Source: Pirellulales bacterium | GTDB taxonomy: Bacteria > Planctomycetota > Planctomycetia > Pirellulales > JACPPG01 | Length of the DNA stretch: 64,000 nt | Assembly (NCBI GenBank): GCA_035546535.1 | Contig: DASZWQ010000098.1 | Coordinates: 3,964 to 67,963 of the forward strand | Reading direction: 5' to 3' | In this document: in pieces, positions 25,039-40,058 of the stretch | Numbering within the stretch: the stretch's first letter is position 1 | Layout of the letters: every line of letters starts with the position of its first letter | Made by a program: the position numbers and the translations under genes | The notes under the pieces: generated by a model | The model's database searches: none | What the model was told of the DNA's origin: nothing | The model's input: the letters and a program-made list of their open reading frames with translations, nothing else

Positions 25039-25080
25039 GCGCCTGTAGCTCAGGGGATAGAGCAACGGTTTCCTAAACCG
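25039..25080 (+). repeat. attL: truncated copy of the 5' 42 nt of tRNA-Arg(CCT)
   Basis: GCGCCTGTAGCTCAGGGGATAGAGCAACGGTTTCCTAAACCG is identical to 39986..40027. The sequence diverges immediately after, so there is no T-arm or 3' acceptor strand. Confidence 0.85.
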
Positions 25081-25172
25081 CCTGGGCCAGTGTTGTAACC
25101 CCTTATTTCTCGGCTTTTCCGCCATTTCTATCCGCTACAGCAACACGGGAAACGGTCCCCGTTGCTGCATTT

Positions 25173-25192
25173 CCCGGACAAATCCGGACAAG
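25173..25192 (+). repeat. Paired CCGGACA half-sites (candidate integrase arm-type site, left arm)
   Basis: CCCGGACAAATCCGGACAAG resembles TCCGGACAGGAATCCGGACAAG at 39942..39963. Confidence 0.45.
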
Positions 25193-25213
25193 AGCGGAAA
25201 GGGGTTTCACACC

Positions 25214-25366
25214 ATGTACGTCGATGCCATCCCGTGCGGTCGCCGCTTTCGATTCGCTGTCTACATTCGCGGCCGTGAAAAGCCCTACGTGAGTCTGCGG
25301 ACGTTTGCCACGCCGCGCATCGCCAAGCGTGCCGGGTGGCGTGAATTCGGCATGGTCAAGGTCTAA
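25214..25366 (+). CDS. Small hypothetical protein (50 aa)
   Basis: ATG..TAA read by hand (MYVDAIPCGRRFRFAVYIRGREKPYVSL..). It is below the ORF-track cutoff and is the first ORF inside attL. Confidence 0.3.
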   Translation: MYVDAIPCGRRFRFAVYIRGREKPYVSLRTFATPRIAKRAGWREFGMVKV

Positions 25367-25383
25367 CCAACAGGGGAAATATC

Positions 25384-25476
25384 ATGCGAGTCACGGCCTT
25401 GTGTGCGTTCGCGCTTACCGTTGTGTTGTTTTTGGCTGGGCCTGATCTTACCTTCCTGATTCTAGGTGGCCGATGA
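25384..25476 (+). CDS. Small hydrophobic peptide (30 aa)
   Basis: MRVTALCAFALTVVLFLAGPDLTFLILGGR. Its stop overlaps the next ATG (ATGA). Confidence 0.25.
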   Translation: MRVTALCAFALTVVLFLAGPDLTFLILGGR

Positions 25477-25601
25477 TAACGACACAAAACCTGATCGAAG
25501 CGTTGGAATGGCTGTTAGAGCGCGCGAAGGGAAGCCACGTACAAATTGACATTTGGACCGTCCGCAAGGTGCTGGACGCTCTCAGGGGGACACAACAGTG
25601 A
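25473..25601 (+). CDS. Small hypothetical protein (42 aa)
   Basis: MITTQNLIEALEWLLERAKGSHVQIDIWTVRKVLDALRGTQQ. ATGA overlap upstream and GTGA overlap downstream. Confidence 0.3.
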   Translation: MITTQNLIEALEWLLERAKGSHVQIDIWTVRKVLDALRGTQQ

Positions 25602-25969
25602 CAACTAAGCCCGATACAACCAGCCAGGTCTTTGGGGTGTTGTTCGTAGCCGTCTTTCTGGCCGGATACCTGTGGGTCAACACCGGCAGTCCCGCCCCGT
25701 CGCAACGTTTCGTCGGACGTGGCGAGCGTGTCACGGTGCGTAACGCGCTTGTGGCGGTGGACTACGAAACGTGGAAGGAAATGGACAAGCTTCAGTCGAT
25801 CGGCGACACGGCTGGTCTGAACCAACTGACCGATGCGAAGCTGATTACGCGCGCCGGTGGAACGGTGCTAGTGATTGATCCGGGCTTCTGCTGCGCCCGC
25901 GTACGCTTCCTGGACGGTCCGATGCAGGGCGCGGCGGGATATCTGAGCGTGGCGTATCTGAGTCGGTAG
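25598..25969 (+). CDS. Hypothetical single-pass membrane protein (123 aa)
   Basis: GTG start coupled to the upstream stop. TM segment VFGVLFVAVFLAGYLWV followed by a soluble domain. Confidence 0.5.
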   Translation: MTTKPDTTSQVFGVLFVAVFLAGYLWVNTGSPAPSQRFVGRGERVTVRNALVAVDYETWKEMDKLQSIGDTAGLNQLTDAKLITRAGGTVLVIDPGFCCARVRFLDGPMQGAAGYLSVAYLSR

Positions 25970-25973
25970 CCGT

Positions 25974-37980: not shown

Positions 37981-38012
37981 GTGTGCCAGTTTGCGAGTTG
38001 CTGCACCTAACA
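37981..38012 (+). promoter_or_regulatory. Bipartite promoter-like motif, copy C
   Basis: GTGTGCCAGTTTGCGAGTTGCTGCACCTAACA. A T13 run (37960..37972) lies 8 nt upstream. An 8-bp hairpin 38021..38041 follows. Upstream of 38072..38488. Confidence 0.4.
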
Positions 38013-38071
38013 AGCATGGGCCGCAGGCACGTCGCCTGCGGACAGATGGAACCAAAGATGAGGTGCAATCA

Positions 38072-38488
38072 ATGGCCGCTACCAACATCAGCAAGCTACT
38101 GCGAATTGAGAATCGTGCAATCTTCGATGCCGTGAATGAGATTGTTTGCGACGTGCAATGCGACGGCATGTTTACAAACAAGCGTTATGACAGGATGTAC
38201 ATCCGGGAAGTCCTAGAGTACGGCCGATTGGTGAGCGAACAACTTTGCGAAGGCTTCCAAGGATTTGAGGCCGACCCGTGGCCAGGCGACAAGATGATGC
38301 TGCGGCAACCTAATAATCTCATCTACTTCTTTTGTGACGACGGCCAGTGGTACTCGGCTTTCAATGGGAAGTTTGACCGACTTCTTGAACCGATGCCCGC
38401 GCTGCCAATTGGCGATGCTGAATCGGCCATACTAGACAGTATCTATTACGGTGCCGATGACAGCAGCCGAAACGCATTGCTCGTTTAA
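38072..38488 (+). CDS. Hypothetical protein (138 aa)
   Basis: GAGGTG lies upstream of ATG 38072 (MAATNISKLLRIENRAIFD..). No family recognised. Confidence 0.55.
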   Translation: MAATNISKLLRIENRAIFDAVNEIVCDVQCDGMFTNKRYDRMYIREVLEYGRLVSEQLCEGFQGFEADPWPGDKMMLRQPNNLIYFFCDDGQWYSAFNGKFDRLLEPMPALPIGDAESAILDSIYYGADDSSRNALLV

Positions 38489-38635
38489 CAAAATAGCGGA
38501 CCCCAGTTGATCCAGAGTCCAAAGCCAACAACCCAGAGCCAACAACGCCTAGGCCGATTAGGTTCGGCAACGGCCCAAGCGCCAGCGGTACAAGTGCTAA
38601 GCGATCAGCGATCAACTGGGGTCTTTTCAATTCAT

Positions 38636-38881
38636 ATGACAGCAGCAACAAGAATCGCAATCGCCCTGGAGCGCATCGCCGATCATCTCGATAGGGCGAA
38701 GCCGCCGGCACCTTTGACCGCTGAACAAGTCGCCGAACGGCTAGGCGTCAGCGTCGATAAGGTCTACCAGATGGCCCGCAAAAAAGAATTGCGGTCCACG
38801 AAACACGGACGCGCGGTCCGGTTCGCGGTTGCCGATATCGAGCGCTATCTAGCGGATCAACGGCCACGCCTCATTGCGTAG
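38636..38881 (+). CDS. xis: Excisionase-family HTH DNA-binding protein
   Basis: LTAEQVAERLGVSVDKVYQMARKKELRSTKHGRAVRFAVADIERYL matches the excisionase/MerR-like HTH pattern. Start moved to ATG 38636. Confidence 0.75.
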   Translation: MTAATRIAIALERIADHLDRAKPPAPLTAEQVAERLGVSVDKVYQMARKKELRSTKHGRAVRFAVADIERYLADQRPRLIA

Positions 38882-39908
38882 CCTTGTCGAGTTCGTCACG
38901 CAAGAATTGGTGCTGTCTCTCTAGATGGCCGTACACTCTGCGGACCATTGTCCCATCGACGTGGCCCATTAGTACGCCAGTGGTGTCGGCAGTAAGACCT
39001 CTCCGTAGCGCACGCTGCGCAAAACGATGGCGAACAGCGTAGGCGCACAGCCCGTTGATTTTCAGTTTGTTGCGTAGCTTTGAGAATCGCTGCGCAATTG
39101 CTCCGGCCGTGTACTCTTGACCCTTGCGACCACGGAACAGCGGTCCGGTCGGATGCTTCTTCGACAGTCGGTCGATAATCTCGGCAGCAGCGGAATTCAG
39201 CCGAATCACTCGGCGAACCTTTTGACCCTTGCTGTTCTCGCGCTCCAGGATCAAATCTTGATCCTCTCTGTGTGCAGCGCTGACACACCGCACCTCTTGC
39301 GGCCGGCAGCCGGTCGCATCCAAGAACTTCAGCACGTCCACAAAGTCAGCTTGCGCAGCGTCCAGGACGCGCTGCCAGTCAGCATCGGAAATATCAACTT
39401 CGCGTGGTATGACTTGCGGGCGCTCAATGCTGACCACGGGATTGATTGCCAGACCCTCGACCAGTTGTTGCTTGATTGCCCAGTTGAACACGCGGGCTGC
39501 GGCAGCAGCACAGCCATTCTTGTACGTTGATCCGCCCGGAAGGTTGTCTATCCAGCTTTGGATATGATGGCCCCGCGCTTCGTGGACCTTTACACTTCCG
39601 CAGTGAGCGACGAACGGGGTCAGTCGCTCCAAGTAGGTCTGGTGAGTTCTAGGCTTCTTCTTCTTCTTTGCCCAGTCGAGGAATTGTTGGCAGAGTTCCT
39701 GTATTGTGGTGGCGGAATTGACTGGCTGCGCACCTGCCATCCGTTTGTGATACTCACGCTCGGCGGCTTCCTTGCTACTTTTGCCATCGTTGTCGAGGTA
39801 TTTTCCGTTGGCATCCTTCTGGGTCTTGGCCAGCCGGACGGGTTTGCCACCCGGACCAACGTCCGCATACCATGCGTGGTGAGACTTCTTGTAGTACGGC
39901 AGTTTCAT
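38871..39908 (-). CDS. int: Tyrosine-type site-specific integrase
   Basis: 345 aa. N-terminal SAM-like region and C-terminal catalytic residues in ..YAVRHRFAQRAL.. and ..LMGHVDGTMVRRVYGHL. Adjacent to the tRNA. Confidence 0.9.
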   Translation of the reverse strand: MKLPYYKKSHHAWYADVGPGGKPVRLAKTQKDANGKYLDNDGKSSKEAAEREYHKRMAGAQPVNSATTIQELCQQFLDWAKKKKKPRTHQTYLERLTPFVAHCGSVKVHEARGHHIQSWIDNLPGGSTYKNGCAAAAARVFNWAIKQQLVEGLAINPVVSIERPQVIPREVDISDADWQRVLDAAQADFVDVLKFLDATGCRPQEVRCVSAAHREDQDLILERENSKGQKVRRVIRLNSAAAEIIDRLSKKHPTGPLFRGRKGQEYTAGAIAQRFSKLRNKLKINGLCAYAVRHRFAQRALRRGLTADTTGVLMGHVDGTMVRRVYGHLERQHQFLRDELDKATQ

Positions 39909-39941
39909 GCTTGCTTGCCCTCCTATCTGTACTATACTTCA

Positions 39942-39963
39942 TCCGGACAGGAATCCGGACAAG
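39942..39963 (+). repeat. Paired CCGGACA half-sites (candidate integrase arm-type site, right arm)
   Basis: TCCGGACAGGAATCCGGACAAG, located 23 nt upstream of the tRNA. Confidence 0.45.
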
Positions 39964-39985
39964 TTCACAGAAAAAAGAGGGTTTT

Positions 39986-40058
39986 GCGCCTGTAGCTCAG
40001 GGGATAGAGCAACGGTTTCCTAAACCGTAGGTCGCAGGTTCGAATCCTGCCAGGCGCA
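39986..40058 (+). tRNA. tRNA-Arg (anticodon CCT)
   Basis: 73-nt cloverleaf folded by hand. Acceptor GCGCCTG/CAGGCGC, D stem GCTC/GAGC, anticodon stem ACGGT/ACCGT with loop TTCCTAA, T stem GCAGG/CCTGC with loop TTCGAAT. No encoded CCA. The first 42 nt form attR. Confidence 0.9.

Follow-up and report, generated by a model that had tools for sequence, protein, structure and literature searches.

A probable phage-derived element integrated through the 5' half of tRNA-Arg(CCT) in a Pirellulales genome

When an element integrates into the 3' part of a tRNA gene, the gene stays under its host promoter, whereas a 5' layout passes transcription of the host tRNA to the mobile element. The stretch of DNA analysed here, 64,000 nucleotides (nt) from an uncultured Pirellulales bacterium (GCA_035546535.1, contig DASZWQ010000098.1, positions 3,964 to 67,963, hereafter the window), raises the question of whether this has happened to tRNA-Arg(CCT), the only tRNA with a CCT anticodon in the genome. 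A sequence-only reading of the window had described an exact 42-nt repeat, the right copy of which runs into a complete tRNA while the left copy diverges at the anticodon stem, with a tyrosine integrase and an excisionase-like gene just inside the right repeat; all of these observations were reproduced. Our analysis makes it very probable that the DNA between the repeats (25081-39985) is a site-specifically integrated phage-derived element, and that the tRNA-Arg(CCT) segment in its attP is the 5' part of the gene, where a 3' part would be usual.

The repeat pair and the recombination module

The repeat, GCGCCTGTAGCTCAGGGGATAGAGCAACGGTTTCCTAAACCG, has exactly two copies in the window (25039-25080 and 39986-40027), both on the + strand, and no other copy in the whole assembly of 6.36 Mb; the number of 42-nt matches expected by chance in the window is 0 (100 shuffles). 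ARAGORN predicted a single tRNA in the window, tRNA-Arg(CCT) at 39986-40059 (+), and made no tRNA call at the left copy. The repeat corresponds to nt 1-42 of this gene: it takes in the 5' strand of the acceptor, the D arm, the 5' strand of the anticodon stem and the whole loop (TTCCTAA), and it stops within the 3' strand of that stem, after the ACCG of ACCGT, so that one of the five bases is left out. Past nt 42, the left copy continues as CCTGGGCC (CCTGGG...) and the tRNA gene as TAGGTCGC (TAGGTC...). The attL side retains ACGGT-TTCCTAA-ACCGc, which corresponds to the anticodon-loop ('A') sublocation of att sites, and the likeness to such sites noticed earlier is borne out by related elements, in which the blocks of identity end at nt 36-40. 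The gene has the sole CCT anticodon among the 54 tRNAs of the assembly (97% complete), and is identical at 71-74 of 74 positions to the gene in genus relatives. A low-stringency search found no further tRNA-Arg(CCT) fragments in the 64 kb of the window; a tandem array was therefore rejected, and the locus is a single island. The features of the attachment sites and of the recombination module are as follows.

25039..25080 (+), attL core: displaced 5' fragment (nt 1-42) joined to the chromosomal upstream flank; exact 42/42 repeat, no tRNA call
25081..39985 (no strand), probable integrated element body, ~14.9 kb, with phage-derived cargo; G+C step, family searches
25174..25192 (+), candidate P' arm-type sites, CCGGACA-N3-CCGGACAAG, 93 nt inside attL; pattern scan of the window
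38636..38881 (+), excisionase-family (HTH_17) gene that runs toward int and shares 11 nt with its 3' end; PF12728 1.2e-14, TIGR01764
38871..39908 (-), intact tyrosine integrase of 345 aa, oriented away from the tRNA; PF00589 1.6e-11, phrog_1 2.9e-39
39911..39938 (+), candidate element-borne promoter toward the tRNA, TTGCTT-16 nt-TATACT; conserved in 4/4 clade members
39943..39963 (+), candidate P arm-type sites, CCGGACA-N5-CCGGACAAG, 23 nt before the tRNA; pattern scan and clade alignment
39986..40027 (+), attR core: repeat copy forming nt 1-42 of the working gene; exact repeat
39986..40059 (+), probable hybrid, sequence-perfect tRNA-Arg(CCT), the only one of the genome; ARAGORN

The base composition agrees with these limits. 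Between the repeats the G+C content ranges from 0.52 to 0.60, against 0.61-0.68 in the flanking DNA except for one 1-kb flank bin of 0.587, and the G+C steps coincide with both repeat copies, with a rise directly after 40059.

The integrase gene is present in a single copy in the genome and is divergent from the tRNA, with its start codon 77 nt from tRNA position 1. Residues R202, K227, R293, H316 and Y326 are invariant in an alignment of 12 family members and, by the alignment pattern, are the putative catalytic residues. All 12 sequences also have an invariant Tyr at residue 290 (YAVRH), where the first His of the HxxR box would be expected. The reading frame of the excisionase is open from 38507 (38507-38881), with a likely start at Met44 (~38636), and scores 48.7 bits against TIGR01764 'excise', for which the cut-off is 28.8. 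Its products share 72-81% identity with those of the gene at the same place in three related loci (L029-L031), in alignments that begin at residue 44. As in lambda-like systems, a small recombination directionality factor (excisionase) gene thus stands beside int, in the relatives as well as in the window.

A tandem motif completes the module. The pattern CCGGACA-N3-5-CCGGACAAG has two occurrences in the 64 kb (0 expected), one inside each repeat and both in the same orientation, an arrangement as would be expected for arm-type integrase sites around an attP core. These candidate sites lie on either side of the putative attP core and are distinct from it, which is also a lambda-like character, and analogous tandem pairs were found on both arms in the related phage contig L033 and in the islands of genomes G236, G012 and G087.

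Relatives of the integrase and the orientation of the att site

A search of 5.8 billion proteins with the integrase returned 20 relatives. The three closest full-length homologues (P0003, P0004 and P0005) have 54-60% identity, and in each of them an intact tRNA encoded on the opposite strand, once Lys(TTT) and twice Arg(TCT), lies ~110 nt upstream of int. The integrase was also classified phylogenetically, as the sequence-only reading had suggested: in a maximum-likelihood tree the window integrase and P0003-5 form a clade with 100/100 support, and all four members have the 5' layout. Alignment of the four int-tRNA spacers revealed a common TTGCTT, a 16-nt gap, TATA(C/G)T and two CGGACA boxes; the pair of CGGACA boxes is invariant across the four elements, which occupy three different tRNA genes, and P0003-5 additionally share ~25 nt immediately before the tRNA. 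Because the same spacer precedes three different tRNA genes, it is element DNA, and the boundary of the element therefore lies inside the tRNA gene, on its 5' side.

A more distant relative, P0011 (37% identity), provides a matched pair of sites, as the identical integrase is encoded on contigs from two sister samples. On L034, int is followed by the spacer and then by a whole tRNA-Gly(CCC), which corresponds to attR, while on L033, a 56-kb phage contig, the spacer is followed by tRNA nt 1-40 only and then by phage DNA, which corresponds to attP. The two contigs are identical over 195 nt up to the point of divergence, tRNA nt 1-40 included, and the phage DNA past the tRNA fragment on L033 has two more copies of the arm repeat CAGGGACA. 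A second attP, also with nt 1-40 of tRNA-Gly, was identified on L036 (P0015).

Taken together with the anticodon-loop analogy, the ends of the relatives' blocks at nt 36-40 indicate that strand exchange probably occurs inside the 7-nt loop (nt 32-38). In the mechanism that we propose, Int would act on the arm motifs and on the inverted halves of the anticodon stem (ACGGT / ACCGc), exchanging strands with attB inside its 7-nt anticodon loop. At attL, the promoter of the chromosome and the front half of the tRNA would be stranded, joined to the P' arm of the element as a dead fragment. At attR, the P arm and the front half brought by the element would be joined to the chromosomal back half. The working tRNA gene would keep its original sequence, now behind element DNA, and Int together with Xis should reverse the integration. 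With a front half from the element and a back half from the chromosome, the only tRNA-Arg(CCT) of the genome would be a sequence-perfect hybrid. The earlier proposal of a hybrid tRNA is thus supported by the spacers and attP sites of the relatives, but not in the form in which the first 42 nt are all element-derived: with a crossover in the loop, only about nt 1-34 must come from the element.

The integrase family was also surveyed in 301 genomes of the same bacterial order, and the layout was scored on the 29 best loci. The family was found in 82 of the 301 genomes, always with at most 39% identity. An intact tRNA was located 35-190 nt upstream of int in 25 of the best 29 loci; in 21 of these it is on the strand of int (the classical layout, with the 3' part on the element), and in four on the opposite strand (the 5' layout). 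Three of the four opposite-strand loci are complete 5'-type islands with the same anatomy as in the window.

G236: tRNA-Leu(CAA), fragment nt 1-38, island of 24.6 kb
G012: tRNA-His(GTG), fragment nt 1-39, island of 14.4 kb
G087: tRNA-Gly(CCC), two islands in tandem, fragments nt 1-39 and nt 1-40, 13.6 + 11.9 kb, each with its own int

The tandem array of G087 is located at C24:129775-155392 (L080, L081). All these islands have matching tandem repeats on both arms and a -10-like hexamer 10-25 nt before the tRNA, inside element DNA, which makes an element-borne tRNA promoter the norm in the family. In G087, the upstream copy of the inner element (caaacccttgtaaact) is visibly similar to the native promoter region (caaacccttgtaagaat). 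A scan of genome contigs with the integrase gave one distant partial match only, in a metagenome-assembled genome of Planctomycetaceae; together with the typical gene families encoded on related contigs, this match points to a probable host in Planctomycetota. Four IMG/VR contigs with an integrase relative (28-31% identity) have tRNA 3'-end sequence upstream of int, in the classical orientation; three of these tRNAs are truncated and the fourth, on L043, is a whole tRNA-Met.

Mapping the layout on the family tree requires at least 3-4 changes, whereas shuffled labels require 8.8 on average and none of 500 shuffles gave so low a value. The orientation thus appears, from the integrase tree, to have switched repeatedly (at least 3-4 times) within one integrase family. 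In both layouts the intact tRNA adjoins the int-proximal arm, and the block of identity ends at the anticodon stem-loop. A broader generalisation can be drawn from this, although we hold it to be distinctly doubtful as a whole: one integrase family would have the same att architecture throughout, in which the anticodon stem-loop can face either way and has been flipped at least 3-4 times, with the intact tRNA always at the int-proximal arm and tandem arm repeats on both sides, and in the 5' orientation the element would take over the promoter of a single-copy tRNA, coupling expression of the rare-codon tRNA-Arg(CCT) to the level of Int or to the lysogenic state. The reason for proposing such a coupling is the position of the arm-type Int sites, which separate the candidate -10 from the tRNA.

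Cargo, promoter and competing explanations

The element encodes few recognisable functions. Searches with Pfam, PHROGs and NCBIfam recognised the integrase, the excisionase, an HTH (helix-turn-helix)/sigma-like protein and a tape-measure protein, and nothing else; for capsid, portal and (large) terminase there was no match for any open reading frame (ORF) tested with the same three databases, so that the cargo falls short of a complete temperate prophage. The additional features, together with the first chromosomal gene to the right, are as follows.

30110..33211 (-), tail tape-measure protein, 1033 aa; PF10145 2.3e-21, TIGR01760 2.1e-20, several PHROG tape-measure families ~1e-20
35740..36183 (-), small HTH / sigma-70 region-4-like protein (regulator or small-terminase-like); HTH_23, Sigma70_ECF and Sigma70_r4_2, ~1e-5 to 1e-6
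40075..40599 (-), chromosomal gene of the right flank, XRE-type HTH, conserved within the genus; HTH_31 and HTH_3, 78-79% nucleotide identity in G003 and G002

Since a tape-measure gene is present while capsid, portal and terminase are unrecognised, the element is a defective prophage or a satellite-like island and not a complete phage. The cargo common to the window element and the related 5'-type islands consists of xis and a small ORF (36305-36679), and no more, and the int/xis/att module, as judged from these comparisons, moves between different cargos. The small ORF is 35-41% identical to ORFs in both G087 islands. The codon usage of the element was also considered. Of the Arg codons, AGG makes up 3.6% in the ORFs of the element and 4.7% in those of the host. 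As it is rare in both alike, the idea that the element raises the supply of tRNA-Arg(CCT) to serve AGG codons of its own was rejected. The rarity of AGG is consistent with the reported preference for tRNAs of rare codons as targets (PMC8371274).

Regarding transcription, the TATACT hexamer singled out by the sequence-only reading is indeed at 39933-39938, 48 nt upstream of the tRNA. Transcription of the tRNA most likely begins in the divergent spacer that separates it from int, where TTGCTT-16-TATACT, conserved in the clade, is the candidate promoter. The block also overlaps, on the opposite strand, the 5' leader and ribosome-binding region of int. The promoter is the weakest step of the proposed mechanism, and its function is one that we infer.

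A search for the empty site, which the sequence-only reading had recommended, was unsuccessful. The genome collection holds one genome per species, and the genus relatives are therefore other species. Searching the left flank as DNA in eight relatives gave two short weak matches only. In tblastx comparisons of both flanks with the relatives' loci, G002 and G003 shared a conserved right flank, but the left flank had no counterpart in any of them; in G003 and G005, the surroundings of the tRNA correspond to other contigs of the window's genome. Beside the tRNA there is also a second indel: window positions 40460-44669 (~4.2 kb), which include most of a 589-aa ORF (40364-42133) with no Pfam match, are absent between two conserved flank genes in G003 and G002.

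Several of the results weigh against an integrated and still transferable element driving the tRNA from its spacer. No empty site was found in the genus relatives, which are different species and show no synteny of the left flank. Exact scans of metagenome contigs gave 0 matches each for the left junction and for the junction of the tRNA 3' end with the right flank, and exact scans of viral contigs gave 0 matches for the attL inner junction and for the P-arm sequence. Most phage functions are missing from the cargo, and the element may thus have lost its transferability; excision and circularisation of the window copy are predictions from its sequence. The window spacer lacks ~31 nt that are present in the three relatives just before the tRNA. 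A consensus promoter scan detected no sigma-70-type site in the int-tRNA interval, TTGCTT-16-TATACT being below the threshold, and the overlap with the ribosome-binding region of int could by itself account for the conservation of TTGCTT/TATACT.

The explanation that draws most on these points accepts the integration as real, and proposes that the element is now a fixed, immobile remnant, with the tRNA expressed through read-through or from some promoter different from TATACT, such as one inside int. The lack of capsid, portal and terminase genes and of the ~31-nt block upstream of the tRNA would fit, as would the finding that the only + strand site from the consensus scan, TTGCCA-18-TACCAT at 39844-39873, is within int. 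Against it, neither the int nor the xis ORF is disrupted, the two repeat copies match perfectly, the arm motifs are complete at either end, and the related 5'-type islands place their -10-like hexamer in element DNA just before the tRNA. We consider such a remnant possible, although clearly less likely than an element with a functional att module and promoter in its spacer.

Two other explanations, which deny the integration or the hybrid, are very improbable. In the first, the 42-nt copy would be a relic of an old tRNA gene duplication or decay, with an integrase nearby by chance. The absence of an empty site in relatives and of a junction in the metagenome contigs scanned would fit such a relic, but the fragment is identical at 42/42 positions, without decay, and ends at the anticodon stem-loop like the 5'-type att sites of related integrases; the G+C steps match both copies, the tandem motif lies inside both and nowhere else, and int and xis are placed exactly as in relatives at other tRNAs. 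Equally hard to credit is a complete tRNA gene carried as element cargo, the host copy having been destroyed by the insertion so that no hybrid exists: the element does supply the upstream region and at least the first ~34 nt, but the G+C content rises immediately after 40059, the next gene rightward is conserved in genus relatives, and the relatives' attP has nt 1-40 only before it diverges, which implies that the family does not carry the whole tRNA.

Other tRNA fragments and known systems

Fragments of tRNA genes also occur elsewhere, both in this genome and at tRNA-Arg(CCT) in relatives. The same genome has orphan classical 3' fragments of Met(CAT) (nt 29-74, C176:12987-13032) and Arg(TCT) (nt 31-75, C74:1085-1129), and a possible second 5' fragment, nt 1-26 of Asp(GTC), at C82:4865-4890. 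Among the relatives, tRNA-Arg(CCT) is also used through its 5' half by at least two tyrosine-recombinase lineages that are unrelated to the present one. G030 has a 381-aa recombinase, and G004 (C764, L009) a homologue of it with 430 aa, both of which adjoin the 5' end of the tRNA and are divergent from it; in G030, a fragment of nt 1-38 is located 105 kb upstream of the intact gene (C7:34827-34864 and 138929-140252; L017, L018). In G018 (C102, L022), a 435-aa recombinase directly follows a displaced nt 1-38 fragment. G001, of the same genus as the window (C186/L019, C104/L020, C162/L021), has a 3.8-kb contig without integrase that encodes a PEP-CTERM protein and has an identical 141 nt at both ends, composed of 104 nt of tRNA upstream sequence and tRNA nt 1-36 or 1-37; it has the look of a small cassette between two 5' halves or, alternatively, of a k=141 repeat in the assembly graph. 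The tRNA-Arg(CCT) of G029 (C2:441848-444291, L023) has a 5' fragment (nt 7-42, 92%) 1.3 kb upstream and a 3' fragment (nt 28-78, 86%) 1 kb downstream, which suggests very small islets on both sides of the tRNA.

The principle of tRNA-targeted integration itself is unchanged by this locus. What the locus and its relatives add is a defined 5'-layout integrase clade, a matched attP/attR pair, several complete islands and a repeated switching of orientation, as it appears from the tree, within one family. These should be of use for annotation tools that expect 3' fragments, and for the study of how tRNA-targeting integrases change the orientation and specificity of their sites.

The geometry had been regarded as unusual by the sequence-only reading. 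It is rare, but already catalogued (PMC4383910, PMC8371274), and so is not new and less unusual than was assumed. The Islander database (Hudson, Lau & Williams 2015, PMC4383910) holds 159 islands with a 5' fragment of the tRNA gene (tDNA) and 3760 with a 3' fragment, 3919 in all, and its algorithm expressly permits a 5' fragment upstream of the tDNA; the 5' class is given as a count only, with no separate description, and few bacterial cases of this layout appear to have been examined in detail. The window has the properties by which Islander defines an island: a full tDNA and a cognate end fragment (nt 1-42) in the same orientation (+) on the same replicon, with the 5' fragment upstream of the tDNA (25039 and 39986, +), and a tyrosine integrase (PF00589) within an interval of ~14.9 kb, inside the permitted 2-200 kb. 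As in the Islander 5' class, the intact tDNA and the upstream fragment bracket the integrase, and the att subsite is centred on the anticodon ('A'). It differs from that class in that the host belongs to an uncultured lineage, and in that the integrase clade, the arm motifs and the shared spacer are defined in the present analysis.

The pTN3-like integrases of archaea share the use of the 5' half. In pTN3 of Thermococcales (Cossu et al. 2017, PMC5495485), the shared block is of 41 bp, the rebuilt tRNA-Leu is parted from its promoter and int is split. According to PMC8371274, pTN3-like integrases express the tRNA from the integrase promoter, which is 'seldom' the case in bacteria, where recombinant tRNA genes, with very few exceptions, keep their own promoter. 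In the window, too, attB is the tRNA's 5' half and the reconstituted gene stands apart from its original promoter. In contrast, the attP of pTN3-like and SSV-type integrases lies inside the int ORF, which is split on integration, whereas the int of the window is intact (345 aa), its attP is 77 nt upstream of int, and the element resembles lambda-like systems in having a distinct excisionase gene as well as arm-type repeats.

By sequence, the window integrase belongs to the same family as the classical anticodon-loop integrases that use the 3' part (the class of Williams 2002, via PMC8371274). The difference is that the tRNA core is reversed relative to int and the arms, so that what the element exchanges is the gene's front half and promoter, not its back half and terminator. 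The window element is thus best filed as a lambda-like tDNA island of the anticodon-loop class, of the rare kind with a 5' fragment.

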